Source of the DNA: an uncultured Gammaproteobacteria bacterium
GTDB lineage: Bacteria > Patescibacteriota > Microgenomatia > Levybacterales > GWA1-39-11
NCBI GenBank assembly: GCA_964596415.1
Contig: CAZQSX010000001.1
Span: forward strand, 37,508 to 101,507
Length of the DNA stretch: 64,000 nt
Direction of reading: 5' to 3'
The translations under genes and the position numbers were made by a program. The notes beneath the pieces were generated by a model that saw only the letters and a list, made by a program, of their open reading frames with translations, was not told the origin of the DNA and ran no database searches. Below, in pieces: positions 2,222 through 62,731 of the stretch (position 1 is the stretch's first letter; each line of letters opens with the position of its first letter).

Positions 2222-4375
2222 ATGAAAATCATACTAAGATTATCTTCGATATTTTTTCTTTTATTACTTCTTTCTTTTTTCCCTGTTTCTGCGCATGCTG
2301 ATGATTTAACCAAATCATGGAACGTAACCACTAGTCTCCCCTACAGTCTAGCAAGCCACGTTGCATTTGGAAACGGGAAGAAAGCATTCGTATTAGACGG
2401 TTCTGCTCAAACTGGTAATAGTCATAATCAAATAATCTCAGCCATATCAGGAGTGAGCGGTGGGTTAAGTAACTGGAGTGTTGAAGCAAGTTTTCCTACT
2501 GCTCTGATATTTCATGCTATTGCTAGAAAAGATAATAATATTTACATTCTTGGAGGCAGAGAGGAAAATCCTGGGTCTGCAATGGATCATGTTAGTAAAG
2601 TTTTTGTAGCAAACATGAATTCGTTGGGTTCTTGGGGGCAGACATTTCCGTTGCCTAGCAATCGGTCATTGGGTGCTGCCGCAATTTCAGGTGATTACAT
2701 TTACTTTTCTGGGGGATTTAATACTACTGGTTATACCAATAAAGTATATGCTTCACATATTAAACCTGACGGTATGCTTGATCCCTGGTTTGAAGTGAGT
2801 GCTTTGCCGCTAACAAGAATTGGACATGGCATGATTGAAGACAATGGAAGTCTGTATGTGTTAGGAGGAGATAATGCGAATCAAGTATATAGAGCAACTG
2901 TTAACACAAGTAATGGGACTATTTCTTCATGGTCTCAAATATCTACATTGCCAGAGAAACTATATAGATCAGCTGTTATAAAAATAGGAAACCAGATATA
3001 TATGATCGGGGGTCATAATGGGACCTCTACGATTAATAAGATTTACTTCACAACTATAAACTCTGATGGTTCGCTTGGGTCTTGGCAGCTTTCAGCGAAT
3101 ACACTTCCTTTACCTGTTCAAGGGGGAGCGGTTGCACAAGCTGGAAAATATCTTTATCTTACTGGAGGATTTAGGTCCCCACCAGGCACATATCTTAACA
3201 GTGTTTATAAAACAGAGTTAAATATTTCAATAGAGCCTGATTTAAATGTTCCGCTTTTTAAACAAACGGATCCTGCATGGGGATCACAAGTATACGATTC
3301 AGCAAATATATGGCAACCAAATAATCCCGGGATTGATGCATCGGGATGCGCCCTTACTTCTGCTGCGATGGTATTTAATTATCATAAGATAACAAAATTA
3401 CCCGATGGATCAAGCCTTGATCCAAAATCTCTGAACATCTGGCTAAAAAACAACAACGGATATGTCGGGGGTGCTGTAAGTTGGGTAAGGTTATCGGCTC
3501 TGAGTGAGTTCGCTAAGTCTCAAAATTCTGCATTTACGTTTGATAGTCTGAAGTATTTCAGAGTAAATGAATTTAATGGAGAACAACTATTAAATGATTT
3601 AGAGCAAGGTATTCCTGGAATTCTTGAGGTTCCAGGGCATTTTATTGTGGGTAAGGGAGTTCAGAATGGAAAATTTTTAATTAATGATCCGTTTTATAAT
3701 AGAACTTCTCTTTCAGATTATGGGGACACGTTTCTTAGCTTAGGAAGATTTGTCCCAACAAATAGTGATGTATCTTATATTGAACTTGCTGTAGATGAAG
3801 GAGCAATTCTTTCAGTCAAAAATCAAAACGGAGAAGTTGTAGGAGAAGGATTTTTGCAAGAACCATATTCTGTTGATGGGCATCCTAGTTCTAATGTTGC
3901 GCGTTATTTTTACCTCGTTCCTGTGCCAGACAATGAAGAGCATACAATTATCGTTTCAGCTGGGGAAACAAAAGAATATACGCTTATTATTCGACTTCAA
4001 GGTGAAGATGGGGAGTTTACAGAAAAAACTGTAAAAGGCATAGTTGATTCAGGTTCCCACGATATTTTTTCTTTTAATTTCAGTAAGTCCGGTAATAATA
4101 AATCAGACATCCAACAAGAACTTTCTTTTGATTCTATTATTTCGGATCTGGAGTTATTGTATAACCTGGGTGAAATTTCAAATATTGGTATCTACATTAC
4201 ATTAAGGCAAAATATTTCAGTTTCACAACAGCTTTTATCCGTAAGTAAAGCAGCATCTACAGCGCATTTAAAAAACGTATTAAGCATACTAAAATCACAA
4301 AGAAAGAAATTTGTTTCAGAAACAGCTTATAAAATTTTATATCCGCAAGTTCAGCAACTCTTATCCACGATCTGA
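2222..4375 (+). CDS. secreted Kelch-repeat beta-propeller protein fused to a C-terminal C39-like (papain-fold) cysteine peptidase domain
   Basis: N-terminal signal peptide (LLLLSFFPVSAHA). Repeated Kelch blades: IYILGG, IYFSGG, LYVLGG, IYMIGG, LYLTGG. C-terminal C39-like catalytic residues: SGCALTSAAMVFNYH (Cys), PGHFIVGKG (His), LINDP (Asp). Confidence 0.75.
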   Translation: MKIILRLSSIFFLLLLLSFFPVSAHADDLTKSWNVTTSLPYSLASHVAFGNGKKAFVLDGSAQTGNSHNQIISAISGVSGGLSNWSVEASFPTALIFHAIARKDNNIYILGGREENPGSAMDHVSKVFVANMNSLGSWGQTFPLPSNRSLGAAAISGDYIYFSGGFNTTGYTNKVYASHIKPDGMLDPWFEVSALPLTRIGHGMIEDNGSLYVLGGDNANQVYRATVNTSNGTISSWSQISTLPEKLYRSAVIKIGNQIYMIGGHNGTSTINKIYFTTINSDGSLGSWQLSANTLPLPVQGGAVAQAGKYLYLTGGFRSPPGTYLNSVYKTELNISIEPDLNVPLFKQTDPAWGSQVYDSANIWQPNNPGIDASGCALTSAAMVFNYHKITKLPDGSSLDPKSLNIWLKNNNGYVGGAVSWVRLSALSEFAKSQNSAFTFDSLKYFRVNEFNGEQLLNDLEQGIPGILEVPGHFIVGKGVQNGKFLINDPFYNRTSLSDYGDTFLSLGRFVPTNSDVSYIELAVDEGAILSVKNQNGEVVGEGFLQEPYSVDGHPSSNVARYFYLVPVPDNEEHTIIVSAGETKEYTLIIRLQGEDGEFTEKTVKGIVDSGSHDIFSFNFSKSGNNKSDIQQELSFDSIISDLELLYNLGEISNIGIYITLRQNISVSQQLLSVSKAASTAHLKNVLSILKSQRKKFVSETAYKILYPQVQQLLSTI

Positions 4376-26912: not shown

Positions 26913-26966
26913 TTGACAAAGAATGAAGTTTTTCTTAAAATTAGCAATCAGAAGACTAAATTGATA

Positions 26967-26967
<1 letters not shown>
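26913..26967 (+). promoter_or_regulatory. groES promoter (TTGACA-17-TAAAAT) followed by a degenerate CIRCE-like operator TTAGCA-N15-TGATAA
   Basis: acTTGACAaagaatgaagtttttctTAAAATTAGCAatcagaagactaaatTGATAAtg. The outer half-sites match CIRCE TTAGCA/TGCTAA (one mismatch). Confidence 0.55.
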
Positions 26968-36381: not shown

Positions 36382-36425
36382 TGACAAATTAGCAGTTAAT
36401 ATGCTAGACTGCTAATGTATAAATT
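36382..36425 (+). promoter_or_regulatory. hsp20 promoter with embedded CIRCE-like operator: -35 TTGACA, TTAGCA-gttaatatgctagac-TGCTAA, -10 TATAAAT
   Basis: The inverted repeat TTAGCA-N15-TGCTAA has exactly the spacing of the canonical CIRCE (TTAGCACTC-N9-GAGTGCTAA) and lies between the -35 and -10 boxes. Confidence 0.65.
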
Positions 36426-47035: not shown

Positions 47036-47073
47036 CTTGACACCAATTAGCAGTCGTGGTATATTATTGCTAA
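47036..47073 (+). promoter_or_regulatory. hrcA promoter region with CIRCE-like operator TTAGCA-gtcgtggtatattat-TGCTAA preceded by TTGACA
   Basis: Outer half-sites are perfect with a 15-nt spacer. Lies in the pyrB/hrcA divergent intergenic region. Confidence 0.6.
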
Positions 47074-51784: not shown

Positions 51785-52075
51785 ATGGAATGTGCTGTTA
51801 ATGAGGTGGCAACAGATTTAGGTTGTCTACCTAATGATCCTGTTGGATTTATTCAAAAGTTTTATGGTATTGGCCTGTCACTTATTGGCATGGTTGCATT
51901 ACTATTTCTCATTTATGGAGGGTATCATATTTTAACCTCTGGTGGAAATTCCGAACAACTTCAAAAAGGAAAAGAATATATCTATTATGCTATAGCAGGA
52001 TTATTGCTTGCTATTTTTGGATTTGTTTTTGTGCAGTTTATTGCTGCAGGATTAAGAATTCCCGGATTTTCGTAA
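51785..52075 (+). CDS. small two-TM protein resembling the TrbC/VirB2-type T4SS pilins common in CPR-like genomes
   Basis: Two Cys near the N-terminus (CAVNEVATDLGCLPNDP). Helix 1 IGLSLIGMVALLFLIYGGYHILTSGGN, a short polar loop (EQLQKGKE), then helix 2 YIYYAIAGLLLAIFGFVFVQFIAAGL. No cleavable signal peptide. Confidence 0.5.
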   Translation: MECAVNEVATDLGCLPNDPVGFIQKFYGIGLSLIGMVALLFLIYGGYHILTSGGNSEQLQKGKEYIYYAIAGLLLAIFGFVFVQFIAAGLRIPGFS

Positions 52076-52086
52076 AAGGTAACACT

Positions 52087-54345
52087 ATGTATAAAAAACT
52101 GCCCATTTTTATAACCTGTTTTATATTTGTAAGCATACTTTTCTTTGGATTTGTCAAAAGTGTTTTCGCTCAGACAACAACAACTTCTGTTACTCCAACG
52201 CCTGAATTAATACAAGAAATTCAGCAAAGTTTTCCAGGTCTTCCTATAGATATTCCAGATTTAACTAATCCATCTGGAGGGCTTCCGATTGGAACAAGTC
52301 CAGTTGCTGAGGGCACTTGGGTTTCTGATTCAAATGTAACGTTTGTTGGAAAAACCGCATCTCGGTCAGGAGATTTTCTTGATTGGACTTTAAGAAATTA
52401 TGATTGGGCATGTGCTACAAAAAATGCAAATGGGTCATGTTCTAACCAAGGAAATCCACTTGTTGGGTTTTGGGCTTTAATTAGAAATATTGTGTACGCA
52501 CTTCTTATAGCAGTTGTACTTGTTGCAGCATTTGTCATGATTATAACTCGCGGAAGAAGCATTACCGTTATGCGTTTTATTCCTCGATTTATCTTTATTC
52601 TTGTTCTTGTGACTCTTTCGTATTCCTTGATACAGTTTATTTATCAAATAACAGATATTATAACTGGTTTTTTTCTTAGAGTAAGCGGATCTCTTATTTC
52701 AACAAAAGATTTAATTTTTATAGGATTTAACTATCAGACTTTTGAGGGTTTAAGGCTAGCTGGTTCAAAGTATGACGAGTCTGCGTTTATAACGCTTTTA
52801 TTAGTCAGGCTTACTGCCATAACGTATTATGTTATGACAGGGATTCTTCTTATTAGAAAAATTATTCTTTGGTTTTTTATAGTACTTTCCCCTATTTTCC
52901 CTCTTTTATTTTTCTTTAGGCCCGTAAGAAATACAGGAAAAATTTGGATAGGAGAATTTTTTAGATGGTTATTATATGCGCCGCTTTTCGCAATCTTTTT
53001 GCATGGATTGGTTGTTTTATGGAGTAGTGGAAGTCCTGATAAACCAGGAATTCCACTTGCTTTTGATTTGACAAGTCCAGGGCGCATTCCAGGTGTTGAG
53101 GCAAATGTTGTATATCCAACTGCCGTGAACATATTAATTGGTGGTCCAGGTCAGCAAATTGGAATTTATAATTCAGTTAATCTTCAGGACACATTTGCGC
53201 TTTATGTTGTTGCTCTTCTTATGCTTTGGGTTGTGATACTTCTTCCATTTATCTTACTTAAAATCTTCTTAGACTATCTGACTAATATTTCGCTTAAGGA
53301 TAATGTAACGCTTCAGAAGATGTGGGATAGGGGTATGGCGCCATTTAATCCAAAACCACCTTCTCCTGCGACCCCACCAATAGTTCCACCACCTGCTACA
53401 ACAGGGCTTGCAAAGTCTTTGCCATTTGCAGCAGGAATTTCTAGAACATTAAATCAAACAAAAAACATCACAGAAAATAAGACTGTTAATCAAGCTATGT
53501 CTAGTCCTGTAAATACGCAAATTCTCCAACTCTCAAATCTCTCAATTCCAAAAATGAGAGATATCGCAAAGTTTGAGACTTCTATGGTTTCAAAAGATAC
53601 AACTCGTCAACACGAAGTTAATAGATTAAAGACTTCACTTTCAAGAATTGCGAATCCAAGCTCAGTTCAAAGCGCATCAGAAAGAGATCGTTACACGCAG
53701 GTGAAACATCAGTTGACACAAGAAAAACAAAAAGGTAACGCTTTGGCTTCATCTATTCTTTCCGCAGCAAACACAACAAATCAGGCTTCCCGCGCTCATG
53801 TACCTGGGCAAAAAATTGCAGCCGTAGCAAATCTTCCAACTGTTAATAGGGTTCAGCAGGTTTCACTTGAAGATTATGAGGAGGTTAGAAAAATGTGGGT
53901 TGAAACATATCAATCATCAGAGCCCCCAACTGATCTAGCAGGAAAACAGGCAAATCGTGAAGAATGGATTAAGGGTGATATTGATAAGATTAATCAAGCA
54001 ATTACGCTTCTATCATCTATTGATCCAAGTCGTTCACAAGAAGGGATGGATATGGTTTCAAATATTTTGCCATTTCTAATGGTTGGAGGATTTTCAAAAA
54101 CTGAAGTTATAGCATACCTAAAAGCAAAACTTGAAGCAGCAAAGCAGGTAATGTCAGACACTAATAAAAAGAAAGAGGATGAGGAGGGTATGGTTGAAAG
54201 AGCCACTGGAACAACAACCGCTGAAAAACATATGACAATGGAAGCAGAAGCAAAAATTCCAGATGAAGAAGCGCCTAAAAAAACATTTGATACCCCTGAA
54301 GATGGTCAAGCAAAAATTGACGATTTGAGAAAAACAGGAGTGTAG
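52087..54345 (+). CDS. signal-peptide-bearing polytopic membrane protein (6 TM) with a long C-terminal hydrophilic domain; VirB6/TrbL-like topology
   Basis: SP MYKKLPIFITCFIFVSILFFGFVKSVFA, a Thr-rich N-terminal exodomain, six hydrophobic helices between about aa 125 and 400, and a C-terminal domain of about 350 aa rich in polar residues. Confidence 0.45.
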   Translation: MYKKLPIFITCFIFVSILFFGFVKSVFAQTTTTSVTPTPELIQEIQQSFPGLPIDIPDLTNPSGGLPIGTSPVAEGTWVSDSNVTFVGKTASRSGDFLDWTLRNYDWACATKNANGSCSNQGNPLVGFWALIRNIVYALLIAVVLVAAFVMIITRGRSITVMRFIPRFIFILVLVTLSYSLIQFIYQITDIITGFFLRVSGSLISTKDLIFIGFNYQTFEGLRLAGSKYDESAFITLLLVRLTAITYYVMTGILLIRKIILWFFIVLSPIFPLLFFFRPVRNTGKIWIGEFFRWLLYAPLFAIFLHGLVVLWSSGSPDKPGIPLAFDLTSPGRIPGVEANVVYPTAVNILIGGPGQQIGIYNSVNLQDTFALYVVALLMLWVVILLPFILLKIFLDYLTNISLKDNVTLQKMWDRGMAPFNPKPPSPATPPIVPPPATTGLAKSLPFAAGISRTLNQTKNITENKTVNQAMSSPVNTQILQLSNLSIPKMRDIAKFETSMVSKDTTRQHEVNRLKTSLSRIANPSSVQSASERDRYTQVKHQLTQEKQKGNALASSILSAANTTNQASRAHVPGQKIAAVANLPTVNRVQQVSLEDYEEVRKMWVETYQSSEPPTDLAGKQANREEWIKGDIDKINQAITLLSSIDPSRSQEGMDMVSNILPFLMVGGFSKTEVIAYLKAKLEAAKQVMSDTNKKKEDEEGMVERATGTTTAEKHMTMEAEAKIPDEEAPKKTFDTPEDGQAKIDDLRKTGV

Positions 54346-54438: not shown

Positions 54439-57204
54439 ATGTTTGGTAATTTATTTTCTGTAAAGCATGACGCACAACAAGATAGCGGACAATCACAAGT
54501 TGTATCTGCTGGGACTACTATGAGTATTGGCGAGCAACCTGTTCATAGTACAAATATTTCCATAAATAGTAATCCATTAAACGTTCCACCTTCTCAACAG
54601 CCAGTTGTAGATCCTTCAGTTGGACAAGGAGGCATGGATCCTCAAAAACGCCAGAACCTTTTTGCCATGAGTAAGCTTGACCCACGAACTATTCAGGTTT
54701 TGCATCATGCACAAGAAGAAACAAAACGAATTGCCCAGCAATTTATTGGTCCGGAGCAGCTTTTAATAGGAATGTTTTATGACGGTGAGATTTTTAAAGT
54801 TTTCCAAAACTTTAATGTAGATGTAGCAAAGTTAACACGTGAAATCCAAACAAAAGAAGTAAGTGGGAGTTTTACCGGAGAACCCACATTATCTGATTCT
54901 GTTAAGCATATTTTTGAAGAGGCCTACACGGCAGCACAGGGAAGAGGGGCAGATTTTGTTTCTCCGGAAGATGTACTCGTTTCACTATTTTCACAACCAG
55001 TAACTTCTGAATTTTTAAAATCTTTTGGAGTAGAAAAGCAAAAATTGGAAGAAAACCTATCTAAATCTTCAGGTTATTCTGCTTCCAGAAAATCAGTATT
55101 AGATAAGTATGGAATAGATTTAACAAAAGAGGCGCGTGACGGAAAATTAGATCCTATTACGGGACGCGATAAAGAAACTGAGCGACTGATTCATATTTTA
55201 CTTCGAAGAACTAAAAACAACCCAATTATTATTGGTGAGGCAGGAGTTGGAAAAACTGCCATAGTTGAAGCGCTTGCGCAAAAAATTGTGCAAGGCTCTG
55301 TCCCTCACGATTTATTAAACAGAAAAATTATTCAGCTTGAATTATCATCTTTGGTAGCAGGCGCATCCCATAGAGGTGAATTTGAAGAGCGACTTCAAAA
55401 TGTCATCAAAGAAGCGCAAGCATCAGCTGGTCAGATAATTTTATTTATTGATGAAATTCATACGCTTATAGGAACTGGTGATACACAAGGCGCAATGGAT
55501 GCATCCAATATAATAAAGCCGTACTTAGCGCGTGGTCAATTACAATTAATAGGAACAACAACAACTTCAGAATATAGAAAATATTTTGAGAAAGATAAAG
55601 CTTTTGAAAGGCGGTTTCAGGCAGTTCTTGTTGAAGAACCATCAGAAGAAGTAGCAATGCAAATGCTTGAAGCGCTTAAGGCAAAATATGAGAAATATCA
55701 TCAAGTTGTTATTACCCCTCAAGCAATTGAGGCGGCTGTTAAGCTTTCTAAAAAATATATTGGTGAAAGATATCTTCCTGATAAGGGTGTAGATTTACTA
55801 GACGAGGCAGCGGCTGAAGTGAAACTCCAACATACTGAAGGAAAACGACCGGATAACCAAGTGGTGAAAGCAGATATTGAAAAAGTTGTATCTGCCTGGA
55901 CAGGAATACCAATAACAAAACTTACTGAAGATGAATCTGCAAAGCTTATTAATCTGGAGGATACAATTCATAAACGGTTTATTGACCAGGCAGAAGCTGT
56001 AAAAGCTGTGGCAGAAGCTGTAAGGCGCGGAAGAATTGGACTTGCTCCAGGAAATAGACCAATCGCATCCTTTATTTTCTTGGGACCAACAGGAGTTGGA
56101 AAAACAGAACTTGCAAAAACACTTGCTGAAATATTATTTGGTCGCGATGACCTCATGATTCGACTTGATATGTCTGAATATATGGAGAAGCACGAGGTAG
56201 CAAAACTTATCGGTGCTCCTCCTGGGTATGTGGGATATGAAGAAGGGGGTCAATTAACTGAAGCAGTGAGAGCAAAACCGTACTCCATAGTTCTTCTTGA
56301 TGAAATAGAGAAAGCACACCCTGATGTTTTTAATATACTCTTACAGCTTCTTGAAGACGGAAGACTGACTGACAATAAGGGAAATACTATTTCATTTAAA
56401 AATACAATTGTTATTGCCACATCAAATATTGGATCAGCTCTTATACAACAACAACTTCTTGCGTCGCAAAAAGATGGAACAAAAACAGCTGTAACAGAAG
56501 AAGATGAGAAGAAAAAATATGAAGCGCTTTCAAAGACACTTATGGATGAACTCCGAAAATTCTTTAAGCCTGAGCTTTTGAATCGTTTTGATGATTTAGT
56601 TATGTTTAAACCACTTCGTCAGCAAGATATGGCACAAATTGCAAAGTTAGGAATTGCCAAAACAAAAAAACTTTTGAAAGATCAAGAACTTGATTTGCAA
56701 ATATCAGATTCTGCTCTTCAAGTTTTGGCGAAAGAAGGATATGATCCGGTTTATGGAGCCAGACCTTTGAGACGTCTTATTCAATCCGCAATAGAAAACC
56801 CGATTGCTATTTTAATAATAAATAAAACATTTGTTCCAAAAGACACTATTCTTATTGATTATGATACTGCAAAAACTGAGTTTACATTTAAGAAAACAAC
56901 TCCTCCTCAGCCGTTAGTTCCGGGTCAGTACCCGCCTGGGGCTCAACCTCAACAAAGCGTTACAGGTATGAATCAAAACGGACAAGCGTTACAGGGTCAG
57001 CCAGTTATTGCAAATGGTATGTCATCTCAGGCAGGAAACCAAGCAGTACCAGGTGGATCTCAAGGAGGCGGTGGTATATTAACAAGTATTGCACAGGAAC
57101 ATACAGCAACTACTCCTCCAGCTGCTTCTCCTTCGTCTCCGACGTCTTCACAGAATCCGCCTCCCGTGATAGGCACAGATGGTACTGCCATGCAAAGAGC
57201 ATAA
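54439..57204 (+). CDS. Hsp100/Clp double-AAA+ ATPase (ClpC-like) with Q/P-rich N- and C-terminal low-complexity tails
   Basis: Clp_N repeats ([17 protein letters not shown]; EDVLVSLF). D1 Walker [13 protein letters not shown] and Walker [10 protein letters not shown]2 Walker [13 protein letters not shown], Walker [15 protein letters not shown], and a sensor. Short D1-D2 linker with no long M-domain. C-terminal ~130 aa Q/P/G/S-rich. Confidence 0.85.
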
Positions 57205-57225: not shown

Positions 57226-59019
57226 ATGCATAAGGTTCGTAAGATTCTTCAGATTCAAGGAAAATTGGCTTATTCATTTTTACTACTCGGTATAGGAATT
57301 GGGATAGTGCTCATTCTTTTATATTTCTTTTTTTCAAGCAGAATTGCGGCAGAAAATGTCAGAACAGAAATATTTCCAGAAGGAGCAAGATATGCAAAAA
57401 ATCAAATAATTGTTAAATATAGATCAGGTTTTTCTCCACATGTATTAAACGCGCAAAACAAAAAACAAGACTTAGATCTTCTTGAAAATAAGCTAAAAAG
57501 TATTGGGGTTATTTCTCAAAATCGATTGTTTATTTCAGATAATATATTGCTTGAAAATTATTACATTTTAAATTTGCCTCAGGATAGTGATATTTTTCAG
57601 GTTTACACAAAGCTTTCAAAATTTTCAGAAATTGATGCAATCACCCCAGATTACATCTTAAGTGTTCAGGAGGTTCCTGATGATCCGGCGTATTCCTCTC
57701 TTTGGGGACTTTCTGAAATTTCAGCACCGAAAGCTTGGGATATTAAAAATGGGAAGAGTAATGTAATAGTAGGAATTGTTGATACTGGAGTTGATTTGAA
57801 TCATGAAGACTTGAAGGGAAACGTAATAAAAGGTGTAAATACTGTTGATGAAACTCGTGATCCTTCAGATGATCACGGGCATGGGACGCATGTTGCGGGA
57901 ACAGTTGGTGCAATCACTAATAATGCAATTGGAATTTCCAGTATTTCTTGGGGCGCAAAGCTATTGGCAATAAAAAGTTGTGATGAAAATGGAGATTGTA
58001 AAACCTCAGATGTATCAAAAGGTATAAAATACGCAATAGATAACGGCGCAAAAATTGTAAATGTGAGTGTTGCGGGTGAAGGGAGTTGTCGGGGTACATA
58101 TGATGATATGAGTAAATATGCAAAAGAAAAAAATGTACTACTTGTTGTTGCTGCCGGAAATGGAATAAATGGGAGAGGAGTAGATGCGAGAAAATGGATA
58201 CCTGCCGGATGTAATGATATATTTACTATTGGTGCGTTTGGTCCGTCTGGAGATCGGGCTCCATATTCAAACTATGGGAATGTTTTGTCTATGTCAGCTC
58301 CAGGAGGAGATAGGGGTTCAGAGGCGTGTACAGAATCAACTTGCATCTTATCAACCAGCAATAACAATACATACTCGCTTCGTCAAGGTACTTCTATGGC
58401 GGCGCCTCAAGTAAGTGGAGCCGCAGCGCTTTTGTTATCATATAATCCATTACTTTCTGTTAGTCAGATTCGCTCGTGCTTGATTCAAGGCGGAGATGTC
58501 TTAACAACTGATAAATACATTGGAAAAAAATTAAACACCCAAAAAGCGCTTATGAGATGTGCGCCCATTGCATCTCCTACGCCTATTCAGAAAGTTGAGG
58601 ATTCTGGAAACTTATCTATTTCTGGCATTGTATATGCAGATGAAAATAATGATAAGTCTTTTGACTCAAATGAGATGCCAATTGTTGGTGCACAGGTTAT
58701 ACTTTCAGGATATGATTCACAAAGTGTTCTCTCAAATTCTACTGGTCGTTATATCTTTCCAGATTTAAAACCTGGTTTTTATACGATTTCAGTTTCAGTA
58801 GGCGGTCAAAGCGCGGGAGATTTGTATGATGTTTCGCTTCTCAAGTTATTTCCAAATGTACAAATAGATCTTCCTATTTCCTCTGAGTATATACCTTCAC
58901 CTACTCAGGATCAAAATCCAAAACCAACCCAGCAAGCATCCAGTATTCAATGTGTCCCTGACCCTGCTTGCGAATCTGCTGAGGGAAGTATTCAAATCTG
59001 CTCGCTGAAATGTGAATAA
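57226..59019 (+). CDS. secreted subtilisin-family (S8) serine protease with I9-like propeptide and C-terminal SdrD-B/Cna-B-like domain
   Basis: N-terminal TM/signal. Catalytic triad motifs VGIVDTGVD (Asp), HGTHVAGTVGA (His), GTSMAAPQVSGAAALL (Ser). C-terminal GIVYADENNDKSFDSNEMPIVGAQVILSGYD...GRYIFPDLKPGFYTISV. Confidence 0.9.
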   Translation: MHKVRKILQIQGKLAYSFLLLGIGIGIVLILLYFFFSSRIAAENVRTEIFPEGARYAKNQIIVKYRSGFSPHVLNAQNKKQDLDLLENKLKSIGVISQNRLFISDNILLENYYILNLPQDSDIFQVYTKLSKFSEIDAITPDYILSVQEVPDDPAYSSLWGLSEISAPKAWDIKNGKSNVIVGIVDTGVDLNHEDLKGNVIKGVNTVDETRDPSDDHGHGTHVAGTVGAITNNAIGISSISWGAKLLAIKSCDENGDCKTSDVSKGIKYAIDNGAKIVNVSVAGEGSCRGTYDDMSKYAKEKNVLLVVAAGNGINGRGVDARKWIPAGCNDIFTIGAFGPSGDRAPYSNYGNVLSMSAPGGDRGSEACTESTCILSTSNNNTYSLRQGTSMAAPQVSGAAALLLSYNPLLSVSQIRSCLIQGGDVLTTDKYIGKKLNTQKALMRCAPIASPTPIQKVEDSGNLSISGIVYADENNDKSFDSNEMPIVGAQVILSGYDSQSVLSNSTGRYIFPDLKPGFYTISVSVGGQSAGDLYDVSLLKLFPNVQIDLPISSEYIPSPTQDQNPKPTQQASSIQCVPDPACESAEGSIQICSLKCE

Positions 59020-59044
59020 TAACGTTAGCAAAAAAGGACTTAAT

Positions 59045-59071
59045 TTGCTAAAATATATGCTCAAAGCTGGA
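59045..59071 (+). promoter_or_regulatory. CIRCE-like operator TTAGCA-aaaaaggacttaatt-TGCTAA upstream of the dnaJ-like gene
   Basis: Perfect outer half-sites with a 15-nt spacer, followed by TAAAATAT and the start codon at 59082. Confidence 0.6.
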
Positions 59072-59081
59072 TAAAGAAAAA

Positions 59082-59954
59082 ATGAAAAAGGATTTTTATG
59101 AAATTTTAGGTGTAGCAAAAACCGCAACTGCGGACGAGTTAAAACGTGCCTATAGAAAGCTTGCTCTTGAGTATCACCCTGATAAAAATAAAGGAAAAGA
59201 TACAGAGGAGAAATTCAAAGAAATAAACCAAGCCTACGAGGTTTTATCAGATCCTCAGAAACGTGCAACGTATGATCAGGTTGGACGTGCAGGATTTGAT
59301 GCAGGGGCGGGAGCTGGTGGTGGGCCTTTTGGTGGATTTGGCGGACAGCAAGGTGGCGGATTTGGACCATTCACCTACTCTTATTCTACCGGTGGAGGGG
59401 CTCAGGGTTTTGATTTTGGTGGCGGTGCTGACCCTTTTGAAATATTTGAGCAATTTTTTGGTGGCGGATTTGGAAGGAGAAAGCCACGATATAGTATTTC
59501 AATAGATTTTTTAGAGGCAGTAAAAGGTGTGACAAAAAAAGTCAGTATAGATGGGAAAGCGCAGAATATTAAAATTCCAGCAGGGGTTGATAATGGTTCA
59601 CGAATTCAATTTCCAGATTATGATGTAGTGGTACAAGTAAAGGGAGATAAAAATTTTCACAGAGAAGGGTATGATATATTAACAGAAAAGCAAATTTCAA
59701 TTGCACAAGCAATTTTGGGGGATGAAGTAGATGTTGAAACTGTTCATGGGTCTGTAAAATTAAAAATTCCAGAAGGCACGCAATCAAATATTCTTATTAG
59801 AATTAAAGGAAAAGGAGTGCCTCATGTAAGGGGGAGAGGGTTTGGTGACCACTTTGTGAGAGTGAAAGTAGAAATTCCCGGGAAAGTAAGTAATAGACAA
59901 AAAGAATTGATACAAGAATTTGAAGAAGAAGGAAAGAAAAAAGGTTGGTTTTAG
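59082..59954 (+). CDS. dnaJ: DnaJ-family co-chaperone lacking the zinc-finger domain (CbpA/type II-like)
   Basis: J domain [35 protein letters not shown], a G/F-rich region, and a C-terminal substrate-binding beta domain. No CxxCxGxG repeats. Confidence 0.8.
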
Positions 59955-60012: not shown

Positions 60013-60342
60013 ATGGGGATTCTGCTCTATCCTATTGCTGTGGTTCTGTTTTGGTACAAAGATGGTGCTTTCGCGCTTTTATTATATTTTCGTTCTTTGA
60101 ACGATTATTGCATTAGGCTTTTTTCCCTCCCAGGTTTATTTGTAACTTTTTTTAGACCTCTTAAGAATGAATATAGAAAAAATTTAGTAGTATTCTCTAT
60201 TTTATTCGGAATGATTGTTAAGACATTTTTAGTTATTGCTTCTCTTGGAGTACTTGCGGCGCTTTTTGCGTTAGAGGTTTTAATTTTTGTTTCCTATATA
60301 CTTTTTCCTATTTTACCGATTTTAGTTTTATTCTATGTCTAG
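60013..60342 (+). CDS. small membrane protein (109 aa, ~4 TM); possible N-terminal module of the downstream Hsp100-like gene (8-nt overlap, +1 frame)
   Basis: Hydrophobic ORF whose stop overlaps the start of 60335..62731. Confidence 0.45.
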   Translation: MGILLYPIAVVLFWYKDGAFALLLYFRSLNDYCIRLFSLPGLFVTFFRPLKNEYRKNLVVFSILFGMIVKTFLVIASLGVLAALFALEVLIFVSYILFPILPILVLFYV

Positions 60343-62731
60343 ATATTTATTTTTATACTATCAGATTAACAACACGCTTCTTGCGCGAGTGATTCGCTTA
60401 TTTTTCTTAGTGGGTGGGTTTATTGGAGTATTTTTTATAAGCACAAATACAGAAGTTTTTAAAATTGTGCTAATCTTCTACTCTTATTTTATTCTTCATG
60501 AAATTTTTATTCACTTTCATGTAGATAAAGCATTTCCGTATATAAAAGTCATTGATAATCCGCAGCAGATTTTAGATACAGTTCTTTTTAAAACAAGAAA
60601 AAAATATGTATCTGGAAAAGATGGACTGAAAGTTATTCAAAAAATTATGCATGATAAGGATGTTGAATTTATGATACAAAAAATAGGCGGTTTTAAGATA
60701 GATAATTTTTCTATTCCAAAAGATGAAATCTTAAAGAAAGCATTCGAATTAGTTTTAGAGATAAAAGGTGCTTATATTACTTCTGCAGATATGTTTACCG
60801 CTTATCTTTTACTTACTGAACTTCAGACGAAAATATTGCAAGAAAAAGAGTTGACGGAAAAAGATTTACTGGAAATATTAATATGGACACGTCAAGAATT
60901 TCATCTTGAACAGCCCAGAAAACAGGTTTTGCATTTTACCGGGTATGGGGTTTTTGATTTCTTTATCTACGGTTGGGATACATATATAAAGGAGTTTGCA
61001 TATGACATTACGTATTCTGTCTTAGGTAAGAAAGCATACCCAATTGTTGGTCGAGAAAAAGAATTTAATGAACTGACTGAAATCCTTTCAAAATCAACAG
61101 TAAATAACGCATTACTGGTGGGTGAGACGGGTGTTGGAAAAACATCACTTGTTTATAGGCTCGCTCTTGAATCATATCGTGATCCACGTTTTATTTTGGG
61201 ACATCGAAAAGTATATGAGGTAATGGTAGATAGATTACTTTCTGGTGTAAATTCATCAAGCGATTTAGAATCTCGGCTTGGATTGTTATTCGCTGAGGTT
61301 AATCATTCTGGAAATATTATTTTGTTTTTTCAAAATATTGAAAATATTTTTGGTGGAGGAGGTTTTGGGTTTGACATGTCTGGAATTCTATTTGAGTATT
61401 TAAAAAACGGAAGCATTCAAATTATCGGAAGTACTACGCCTGGATCCTACAAGGAAATTATAGAAAAAAAACAAAGCATTTTGCATTTATTTGAAAGAGT
61501 TTCTATTCAAGAACCAGAAAGAGAGCAAGTGTTTGAGATGATTGCGTCACATATTCCGGTAATAGAACACGAGTATGGAGTTTCTATTTCATACAAAGCA
61601 ATTCACGATGCTACAGAACTTGCATCTTCATATTTTCCAGATCAGGTATTGCCAGGAAAGGCGATAAACCTATTAACAGATGTTGCGGCAAAAGTAAGAC
61701 ATAGTGGTGGAAAAACTGTTGATAAAGATGATGTGGTAGCGGTAGTTCAGGAAAAAACAAATATTGTATTAGAGAAGCCATCAGATGAGGAGAAGGATAC
61801 ACTGCTTCATTTAGAGGAGCAAATGCATAAGCGTGTTATCGGACAAGAAGATGCGATAACAGCAGTTGCCAAAGCGATTCGACGACTCAGGTCTGGTTTC
61901 ACACAGCATACACGTCCTATTTCTGTATTTCTCTTTTTAGGTCCAACTGGAGTTGGAAAAACAGAAACTGCAAAGACGCTTGCCGATCTTTATTTTGGAG
62001 ATGAAGCTCATATGATTCGACTTGATATGTCTGAATACCAAACCCAGAATGAGGTAGAAAGGTTATTGGGAGGTTTGCCTGGGGGTGAAGAAATTTCTGG
62101 TTCACTACCTGATCAGGTTCATGAACATCCCTTCTCTTTGATTTTACTTGATGAATTTGAGAAGGCACATCCGCATATATTAGACATATTCTTACAAGTT
62201 TTTGAAGATGGAAGACTTACTGATAATCAAGGGAAAACTGTTTCATTTAAAAATACTATTATTATTGCTACTTCAAATGCAGGATCTGAAACAATTCGCG
62301 AGATGGTTGGAGGAGGGATGGATATAAGCACTGAGAAGAATAAAATTATAGATGGGCTGCTACAATCTGGAATTTTTAAACCAGAACTTTTAAATCGTTT
62401 TGACGATGTAATAATTTTTCAGCCGTTAACAGTAGAGGATGCAAAGCAAATTGCTGAATTATTAATAAAAACTTCTCTTCAGGCATTAGAAAGTGACCAG
62501 ATATATCTTACGTTTGATGAAAAAGTGATAAATAAGGTAGTTACTGAATCATTTGATGTGGAGGCAGGAGCTCGGAATATGAGAAGGTATATTGGAGCAG
62601 AGATTGAAGATTTCATTTCTCAGCTTATCTTAAAAGACCAGCTTCCTGCAGGGGTGCACGCGATGCTTTCAACTGATGATAACAATAAATTTATTTTAAT
62701 AAATGAAAAAGAGGTTGTAGCAGAAGCATAA
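60335..62731 (+). CDS. membrane-anchored Hsp100/Clp-family double-AAA+ ATPase paralog with degenerate D1 Walker B
   Basis: Two N-terminal TM helices. D1 Walker A GETGVGKTS is intact, but Walker B reads IILFFQNIENIF (the canonical h-h-h-h-D-E is replaced by Q-N). D2 Walker [13 protein letters not shown], Walker B LILLDEFEKAHPHI, and sensor-1 ATSNAGS are intact. Confidence 0.8.
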   Translation: MSRYLFLYYQINNTLLARVIRLFFLVGGFIGVFFISTNTEVFKIVLIFYSYFILHEIFIHFHVDKAFPYIKVIDNPQQILDTVLFKTRKKYVSGKDGLKVIQKIMHDKDVEFMIQKIGGFKIDNFSIPKDEILKKAFELVLEIKGAYITSADMFTAYLLLTELQTKILQEKELTEKDLLEILIWTRQEFHLEQPRKQVLHFTGYGVFDFFIYGWDTYIKEFAYDITYSVLGKKAYPIVGREKEFNELTEILSKSTVNNALLVGETGVGKTSLVYRLALESYRDPRFILGHRKVYEVMVDRLLSGVNSSSDLESRLGLLFAEVNHSGNIILFFQNIENIFGGGGFGFDMSGILFEYLKNGSIQIIGSTTPGSYKEIIEKKQSILHLFERVSIQEPEREQVFEMIASHIPVIEHEYGVSISYKAIHDATELASSYFPDQVLPGKAINLLTDVAAKVRHSGGKTVDKDDVVAVVQEKTNIVLEKPSDEEKDTLLHLEEQMHKRVIGQEDAITAVAKAIRRLRSGFTQHTRPISVFLFLGPTGVGKTETAKTLADLYFGDEAHMIRLDMSEYQTQNEVERLLGGLPGGEEISGSLPDQVHEHPFSLILLDEFEKAHPHILDIFLQVFEDGRLTDNQGKTVSFKNTIIIATSNAGSETIREMVGGGMDISTEKNKIIDGLLQSGIFKPELLNRFDDVIIFQPLTVEDAKQIAELLIKTSLQALESDQIYLTFDEKVINKVVTESFDVEAGARNMRRYIGAEIEDFISQLILKDQLPAGVHAMLSTDDNNKFILINEKEVVAEA

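Follow-up and report, generated by a model that had tools for sequence, protein, structure and literature searches.

What can a double-ring Hsp100 ATPase do when it is fixed to a membrane, has lost the catalytic residues of its first ring, and is encoded directly behind a small membrane protein whose reading frame overlaps its own? The question is raised by a locus in a 64,000-nt stretch of DNA (hereafter the window) from a bacterium of the GTDB lineage Levybacterales (NCBI GenBank assembly GCA_964596415.1, contig CAZQSX010000001.1, positions 37,508 to 101,507 of the forward strand). On the plus strand of the window, an open reading frame (ORF) of 109 aa (60013-60342; hereafter the small ORF) is followed by an Hsp100-like ORF of 798 aa (60335-62731; hereafter the ATPase). 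The coordinates of the two ORFs confirm an overlap of 8 nt between start and stop (ATGTCTAG, 60335-60342, +), which had been pointed out in a first-pass annotation made from the letters alone. That annotation had also suggested that the two ORFs might be one gene split by a single-base indel. The comparative data presented below instead indicate that they are a genuine, translationally coupled pair and not one broken gene. Bacterial Hsp100s are soluble threading motors with two active rings, and the family to which this ATPase belongs departs from these rules in four ways: its members are anchored, come in an obligatory pairing with a small membrane protein, have a pseudo-ATPase as first ring, and lack pore-loop tyrosines. 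Such a protein raises a question of AAA+ mechanism, namely what an Hsp100 ring can do without aromatic pore loops, and for what purpose a dead ring is kept.

Architecture of the ATPase

The fold of the ATPase and the sequence of its second AAA+ module (D2) indicate that it is a class I Hsp100. Pfam searches identified AAA_2 (4e-51), ClpB_D2-small and AAA_lid_9, with the first module (D1) receiving weak generic P-loop matches only; the two tandem AAA+ modules, the Hsp100 lid and the D2-small domain by which class I Clp/Hsp100 proteins are recognized are all present. An AlphaFold2 model built from an 89-sequence alignment (pLDDT 87.2, pTM 0.74) matched the protomers of ClpC, ClpB and ClpA in a Foldseek search with target TM-scores of 0.86-0.88. 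With Bacillus subtilis ClpC (3J3T), Staphylococcus aureus ClpC (9GI1) and Thermus thermophilus ClpB (1QVR) the ATPase shares 36% identity over ~585 aligned columns, together with the tandem AAA+ modules, AAA_lid_9, ClpB_D2-small and canonical catalytic motifs in D2. It differs from these proteins in its membrane hairpin, in its obligatory partner (a small membrane protein), in the replacement of Asp-Glu by Gln-Asn in D1, and in the absence of D1 arginine fingers and of the KYR and GYVG tyrosines. The NCBIfam scores for ClpB, ClpA, ClpV, ClpK and ClpG all fall far below their cut-offs.

Hydropathy and the AlphaFold2 model agree on two N-terminal membrane helices, as first annotated (TM1, residues 15-37; TM2, residues 39-63; 60377-60523, +). 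The hairpin that they form is preceded in the model by a short amphipathic helix (residues 2-12) and ends in a conserved NE(I/L)FIHFK motif; an N-terminal hydrophobic hairpin was detected in 104 of 120 relatives, and none was found in the canonical Hsp100 paralogue encoded elsewhere in the window. This hairpin tethers the ATPase to the membrane on its cytoplasmic side. Behind it the model places a helical N-domain of eight helices (residues 79-189; 60569-60901, +), which had been described as a degenerate Clp_N-like segment. An hhalign match to the N-domain of the canonical paralogue was weak (P 0.001) and confined to the second Clp repeat, Pfam Clp_N matched none of 41 members at E ≤ 1, and a PDB profile search with the N-domain returned no match; any affinity to Clp_N is putative. 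Just before D1 lies an aromatic motif specific to the family, FTGYGVFDFFIYGW (F.G.G....GW; 60935-60976, +), recognized from the alignment of relatives. Residues G205, G213 and W214 of this motif are invariant in 76/76 relatives, and the linker that carries it is the lowest-confidence region of the AlphaFold2 model.

Motifs were compared by phmmer searches against PDB sequences, in which D1 (61031-61714, +) aligned unambiguously with B. subtilis ClpC. Consistent with the first-pass annotation, the D1 Walker A motif is intact (GETGVGKT, 61121-61144, +; GEPGVGKT in ClpC), and the Asp-Glu of Walker B is replaced by Gln-Asn (IILFFQN, 61316-61336, +; IILFIDE in ClpC; fuller rows, IILFFQNIENIF versus ClpC IILFIDELHTLI). 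The arginine-finger site, a point that had been left for alignment to settle, reads SILHLFERV (61475-61501, +), with LHLFE opposite ClpC ERRFQ, such that both fingers are lost. The D1 pore loop, SGVNSSSDLESRL (61241-61279, +), has no tyrosine, with GVNSSSDLE taking the place of ClpC GTKYRGEFE. Lacking the Walker B aspartate, the arginine fingers and the pore tyrosine, D1 is, as read from these alignments, a pseudo-ATPase. Glu336 (in IENIF) was considered as a displaced catalytic acid of D1 and rejected, this position being Glu in 38 relatives and Gln in 34.

The alignment of D2 (61817-62659, +, including its small domain) with ClpC gives a different picture. Walker A (GPTGVGKT, 61940-61963, +), Walker B (LILLDE, 62138-62155, +), sensor-1, the arginine finger (in PELLNRFDD, 62381-62407, +) and sensor-2 are intact. 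The module had been called fully canonical, a description that holds for these catalytic residues and fails for the pore loop, GGLPGGEEISGS (62069-62104, +), which has no GYVG: GGLPG--GEEISG stands opposite ClpC GSPPGYVGYDEGG, the YV of GYVG being deleted and the pore tyrosine gone with it. Two further elements of characterized relatives are missing. ATPase residues 459-461 span ClpC residues 407-470 in the alignment, leaving no coiled-coil M-domain of the kind found in ClpB/Hsp104 (TIGR03346 score 452.7 versus a cut-off of 1232.1). The [LIV]-G-[FL] loop with which ClpA, ClpC and ClpE dock onto ClpP is also absent, with MVGGGM opposite ClpC YVGFNV in a segment that varies across the family (ClpA model score 418 versus a cut-off of 993). 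The first absence sets the ATPase apart from ClpB and ClpC, and the second from ClpA, ClpC and ClpE.

These features extend well beyond the window. A search with ATPase residues 1-460 yielded at least 120 cluster representatives, which were aligned with MAFFT; nearly all are 770-802 aa long, cover the whole query and come from Patescibacteria/Candidate Phyla Radiation records, and one (P0002) is identical to the window ATPase. Their database names are generic only, for example 'AAA family ATPase' and 'ATP-dependent Clp protease ATP-binding subunit'. All 120 aligned members have a degenerate D1 Walker B of the form hhhhI(Q/P)N(I/F)E(N/A)I(F/L), no D1 arginine fingers and a shortened D2 pore loop. 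In a broader motif census of 76 ATPases aligned from GTDB species-representative genomes, the D1 Walker B Asp position is occupied by Pro in 60, Gln in 12, Glu in 2 and Ser in 2, and Arg occurs at the D1 arginine-finger positions in 0/76. The D1 Walker A Lys position is Lys in 69 and Arg in 7, and the residue that follows it is Thr or Ser in only 34/76. Thus, the loss of a functional Walker B in D1 is a trait of the whole family and not a private mutation. Two D1 subtypes can be distinguished, GK[T/S] with (Q/P)N, which includes the window ATPase and resembles an engineered ATP trap, and GK[E/D] with P[E/D]. The initial proposal that D1 binds ATP without hydrolysing it is accordingly plausible for the window ATPase, with its GKT and QN, and is not general, Thr or Ser being kept in under half of the species.

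Across the same 76 species, the D2 residues K542 and T543 (Walker A), D606 and E607 (Walker B), N648 (sensor-1), R688, R747 and R751 are invariant (76/76). Because D1 is degenerate and the catalytic residues of D2 are invariant, D2 is likely to be the only motor of the ATPase. The pore loops follow another course, with an aromatic residue in the D2 loop of 11/76 species and in the D1 loop of 3/76; no stretch of D2 varies more than its pore loop (entropy 2.02 versus a D2 mean of 1.18), which is also acidic, with a mean charge of -1.6. The ATPase therefore lacks both the catalytic D1 and the aromatic pore loops that are common to all characterized class I members. We know of no naturally dead D1 among bacterial ClpA/B/C-type proteins.

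The pair occurs among Candidate Phyla Radiation bacteria, with Levybacteria making up most of the named records. The GTDB species-representative records that hold it (L006-L085) often have titles such as 'uncultured Gammaproteobacteria', 'Woesearchaeota' or 'Sulfotelmatobacter', which look like placeholder or wrong names. In agreement with the first-pass annotation, no published description of the family was found in literature searches, although 'undescribed' is provisional given that the searchable literature is incomplete. The Méheust et al. survey of Candidate Phyla Radiation protein families mentions Microgenomates-enriched membrane hypotheticals and no Clp/AAA proteins (PMC6744442).

The small membrane protein as partner

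The small ORF had been assigned about four membrane helices. Its structural model (pLDDT 94.5) instead shows two very long hydrophobic helices, residues 2-36 and 56-97, joined by a conserved, positively charged loop (TFFRPLKNEYRK; TFFRPLKNEYR at 60145-60177, +). No real match to the protein or its family was found in Pfam, none to the small ORF in NCBIfam, and a fold search gave nothing better than E=2.9. When the 109-aa ORF was compared by HMMER with 1.84 billion representatives, 37 relatives were identified, all 67-152 aa long; a word-indexed search with the small ORF joined to the ATPase N-terminus had given one match only. Compared with the related locus L001, substitutions in the small ORF at codon positions one, two and three number 15/4/37, and those in the ATPase ORF 83/40/297. 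The third-position excess indicates that the small ORF is a real coding gene, and because of it we consider both ORFs to be under purifying selection.

A scan of GTDB species genomes based on the small-protein alignment detected the gene in 179 of them, and the best 80 loci were kept. In 79/80 of these the ATPase lies directly 3′ of the small protein, and in the one exception only 472 nt of sequence remain past it. Conversely, in 7/7 loci seeded with the ATPase, at identities from 85% to 32%, a separate small ORF of 107-123 aa lies immediately 5′. The linkage of a membrane protein to an Hsp100 that the first-pass annotation had proposed looking for in related genomes is thus present throughout, and the small protein with the ATPase is the only invariant association across loci. 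These data support a functional link between the two proteins.

A few Levybacteria carry true fusions of the two: L060 (3495-5951 of MFNS01000007.1) and L064 (MFPH01000067.1), in-frame joins of small protein and ATPase from two Rifle genomes; L005, which encodes P0001; and the fragment P0159. P0001 was the first homologue of the small ORF to be found, its residues 1-103 matching the small ORF (43% identity, 9e-24) and residues 134-201 the ATPase N-domain. The order in one frame is small protein, one membrane helix, N-domain, D1 and D2, with exactly TM1 of the ATPase lost. The early idea of a membrane-Hsp100 fusion therefore holds for these few genomes, in a form that has one ATPase helix fewer and does not correspond to simple read-through. 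As classic gene-fusion evidence, the natural fusions argue that the small protein and the ATPase act together. They also bear on topology. The models would place the small protein with both termini outside and its loop in the cytoplasm, and the ATPase hairpin with both termini inside; the fusion would drop one ATPase helix because the small protein ends outside while the ATPase hairpin starts inside.

Two nearly invariant charged residues lie within the membrane helices, K70 of the small protein (60220-60222) and E56 in TM2 of the ATPase (60500-60502), and may form an intramembrane contact. The fused relatives are without the NE.FIHFK motif. In L005 (ENA k141_4270111) an in-frame TGA occurs at ~nt 632-634, with homology going on in the same frame. 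UGA recoding (genetic code 25) was rejected as the explanation, the close relative L060 having Leu (likely TTA) at this position; the TGA more likely reflects a point error or a nonsense change.

Proposed mechanism and its alternatives

We lean, by a little more than even judgement, toward a stoichiometric membrane complex that is driven by D2 and acts as a probably non-threading remodeller in membrane proteostasis. In such a complex, equal numbers of the small protein and the ATPase (1:1) would make up a hexameric ring, with the N-domain/D1 face turned toward the membrane. D1 would provide a static assembly scaffold, probably ATP-bound in the window ATPase in the manner of an engineered Walker-B trap, and D2 would be the sole motor. 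Nucleotide-driven movements of D2 would then pass to the membrane helices and the small partner, and membrane-embedded clients would be remodelled or released, much as Torsin works with membrane cofactors. Because the pore loop of D2 is short and acidic and shows little conservation, threading of the ClpB/ClpC type is not favoured.

Aromatic pore loops are conserved in Clp/Hsp100 proteins and critical for processive unfolding, and Torsins are Clp/Hsp100 relatives that lack them and depend on membrane cofactors (PMC5425593). Torsin (with LAP1/LULL1) and the ATPase have in common the missing aromatic pore loop, an association with the membrane and a dedicated membrane cofactor. Torsin is a lumenal protein of eukaryotes built of a single module, with its arginine finger supplied by the cofactor, whereas the ATPase has its own D2 arginine finger (R688), a dead D1 ring, and a partner that is a small helical hairpin and not an AAA-like fold. 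In NSF (D2) and Pex1/Pex6 (D1), one ring is an inactive or nucleotide-binding scaffold and the other ring is the motor. This is the same division of labour as that proposed here, although NSF and Pex1/Pex6 are soluble proteins of a different AAA+ clade and keep aromatic pore loops in the active ring.

Several considerations weigh against this reading. The hexamer, the 1:1 complex, the topology and the type of client are all inferred, and loss of the aromatic pore residue is no proof that translocation is absent. D2 possesses its own invariant arginine finger, unlike Torsin, so the partner is not needed to complete the active site. Finally, since only 34/76 species keep Thr or Ser after the Walker A lysine, an ATP-bound D1 scaffold may be limited to the GK[T/S] with (Q/P)N subtype.

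The alternative that survives best, and one that we hold to be unlikely without discounting it, is a canonical extractase or unfoldase for membrane proteins, comparable to a protease-less FtsH or a bacterial Msp1/Cdc48, in which clients would be pulled from the bilayer via the D1-D2 channel and handed to DnaK/DnaJ or a protease. The ATPase shares its ring geometry and fold with threading Hsp100s, its D2 is fully competent in catalysis, and the anchor sets the D1 entrance beside the bilayer, as in FtsH. The likeness to FtsH includes the two N-terminal membrane helices, an AAA+ ring under the cytoplasmic membrane and the proteostasis context; FtsH itself has a single AAA module of the classical clade, whose pore loop is aromatic and to which an M41 metalloprotease is fused, whereas the ATPase has the Hsp100 double module, no Peptidase_M41 match, no periplasmic domain between its helices and no pore aromatics. 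Genes for DnaJ and DnaK often lie nearby, as do those for a canonical Hsp100 and a membrane-anchored subtilase, and the invariant F.G.G....GW motif before D1 could form a hydrophobic collar at the pore entrance, an unconventional grip. Extraction through the channel is, however, difficult to reconcile with two pore loops that lack the aromatic residue critical for processive unfolding (PMC5425593), with a D2 loop that is acidic and the most variable part of its module, and with the absence of an M-domain for coupling to DnaK and of a ClpP loop. In Plasmodium, HSP101 of PTEX threads cargo into the EXP2 pore; it is not itself membrane-anchored, and it has two active rings and pore tyrosines.

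It is improbable, in our assessment, that the ATPase energizes secretion, pilus assembly or another envelope process by way of the small membrane protein. A hexamer would gather 24 membrane helices, a sortase gene lies nearby in L001 and L003, and a survey of neighbours in 79 species loci found genes for a PilB/GspE-type ATPase (10 loci), PilC (8) and a pseudopilin (5) upstream of the pair. These last neighbours are encoded on the opposite strand, and only a minority of loci have them, whereas the sole invariant partner is the small protein. The ATPase scores 384 against a cut-off of 885 with the ClpV/TssH model (TIGR03345), no T6SS genes occur among the neighbours, and the pore-loop aromatics are missing. 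Of the original suggestion of an envelope- or secretion-coupled unfoldase, then, the membrane anchor stands, while the lack of conserved pore-loop aromatics speaks against an unfoldase and the coupling to secretion is weakly supported. A role as an anti-phage defence ATPase was also considered and rejected: PADLOC gives generic D2 similarity to DolB and PDC-M37B, restricted to residues 472-658, and no match to the small protein.

That the locus is a single gene, split by sequencing or assembly error, by recent pseudogenization or by programmed +1 frameshifting and yielding a fusion of ~900 aa, is very improbable. The 8-nt overlap makes the idea a natural one, and fused orthologues do occur in a few Levybacteria. 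The small ORF ends ...TTC TAT GTC TAG and the ATPase opens ATG TCT AGA, in a frame that is +1 relative to the small ORF and closed on its 5′ side by TAG at 60323-60325. Any fusing indel is therefore confined to 60326-60339 (~15 nt), within which a 1-nt deletion would join the ORFs. Related loci, however, show the split state in ~82/85 cases, with three truly fused. Among the 85 scorable loci there are at least 15 different spacings: -4 nt (ATGA) in 34, +1 in 13, +3 in 10 and -8 in 3, the window included, with other values scattered. In ~15 loci an in-frame stop is followed by a fresh ATG. The locus L001 (protein P0003), which derives from a different sample, is represented by seven contigs and is 85% identical, keeps the same 8-nt overlap with TAA as stop instead of TAG. 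The N-terminus of the ATPase (M..Y..LY.F...R) is conserved across the family from its own ATG, the 37/37 relatives of the small protein are short, and the natural fusions, having lost TM1, are not read-throughs. Examination of the junction sequence revealed no slippery site or stimulatory structure. On this comparative level the single-gene explanation is already refuted; the split is best understood as ancestral and maintained by selection in a pair of genes coupled in translation, and its conservation excludes a frameshift or sequencing error for practical purposes.

Least credible of all is decay of a functionless duplicate of the neighbouring canonical Hsp100, which the loss of most D1 catalytic motifs and the presence of that paralogue (40% identity, 3 kb upstream) might suggest and which conservation already refutes: the same losses are fixed in >100 clusters and 179 species genomes alongside a perfectly conserved D2, ATPase substitutions relative to L001 are biased to the third codon position, and invariant residues specific to the family have been gained.

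Genomic context and biological meaning

The gene order in the window is hrcA (47092), grpE and dnaK, followed by small ORFs, a 752-aa ORF, the canonical Hsp100, a subtilase, dnaJ, the pair and a 2-hydroxyacid dehydrogenase. The dnaJ gene (59082-59954, +; J domain and DnaJ_C by Pfam) is the first gene of a probable operon that includes the pair; a gap of 58 nt lies between it and the small ORF, and no convincing terminator was found between dnaJ and the pair. At 59025-59051 (+), 57 nt 5′ of dnaJ, lies a CIRCE-like inverted repeat, TTAGCA-N15-TGCTAA, which overlaps a promoter-like TTAGCA/TAAAAT pair. Similar repeats occur directly 5′ of groES-groEL (26941-26967, one mismatch), hsp20 (36389-36415) and hrcA-grpE-dnaK (47047-47073), so that four such sites are observed in the window versus 0.36 expected by chance. 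Together they look like a divergent HrcA operator defining a compact heat-shock regulon in this genome. Within that regulon the pair is probably co-transcribed with dnaJ under the HrcA/CIRCE-type operator, and for this reason we would place it in the heat-shock and membrane-proteostasis response.

Evidence from the context also counts against so general a placement. The 58-nt gap between dnaJ and the small ORF may hold a weak internal promoter. In 50/85 loci no dnaJ lies upstream, and at these loci the surroundings of the pair contain no CIRCE-like site; linkage to heat shock is specific to some lineages. A CIRCE-like operator as a feature of the whole family was likewise rejected: in 590 kb of related loci there are five matches, all 37-58 nt 5′ of dnaJ, and none occurs at pairs without dnaJ. 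A dnaJ gene lies within 3.5 kb 5′ of the pair in 30-35 of ~80 related loci. In the 79 surveyed loci, the upstream neighbours include dnaJ (30), DnaK (15), subtilase (16) and often a canonical Hsp100 as well, and the downstream neighbours include NusA (26-28) and 2-hydroxyacid dehydrogenase (15).

Other genes in the window show features of their own. The DnaJ protein, the only one encoded in the cluster, has no zinc-finger (CXXCXGXG) match and is class B-like. The canonical Hsp100 paralogue (921 aa; 54439-57204, +) has intact catalytic motifs and an intact D2 GYVG, lacks an M-domain and a ClpP-docking loop, has SHR for KYR in its D1 pore loop, and carries a low-complexity N-terminal extension of ~80 aa and a C-terminal extension of ~100 aa. 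The subtilase between this paralogue and dnaJ (Peptidase_S8; 57226-59019, +) is hydrophobic in a segment near its N-terminus and carries CarboxypepD_reg/SdrD-B-like domains at its C-terminus. The interval from dnaK to the canonical Hsp100 contains a 96-aa T4SS-pilin-like ORF (51785-52075, +) and the 752-aa ORF (52087-54345, +), which has no match in Pfam, NCBIfam or PADLOC. Farther away, a 717-aa protein (2222-4375, +) has both Kelch beta-propeller repeats and a Peptidase_C39-like domain, which are not commonly found together.

For annotation, the consequence is that the label 'ATP-dependent Clp protease ATP-binding subunit' that these proteins now carry is almost certainly wrong, because the ClpP-docking loop is missing. 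For the biology of these bacteria, the conserved 2.7-kb module probably performs an important task in the envelope or in membrane proteostasis, because Candidate Phyla Radiation genomes are tiny and chaperone genes adjoin it. More tentatively, and with rather more doubt than confidence, the pair might be the first representative of a prokaryotic kind of Hsp100-derived machine that is integrated in the membrane and does not thread, a counterpart of the logic by which Torsin works with its cofactors. If so, the dead D1 and the two-helix subunit would turn D2 hydrolysis into movements within the bilayer, and these movements would serve the disaggregation of membrane proteins, the disassembly of complexes or gating, not the pulling of polypeptides. 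Levybacteria and related Candidate Phyla Radiation bacteria would then have, in this pair, a lineage-defining device for proteostasis.

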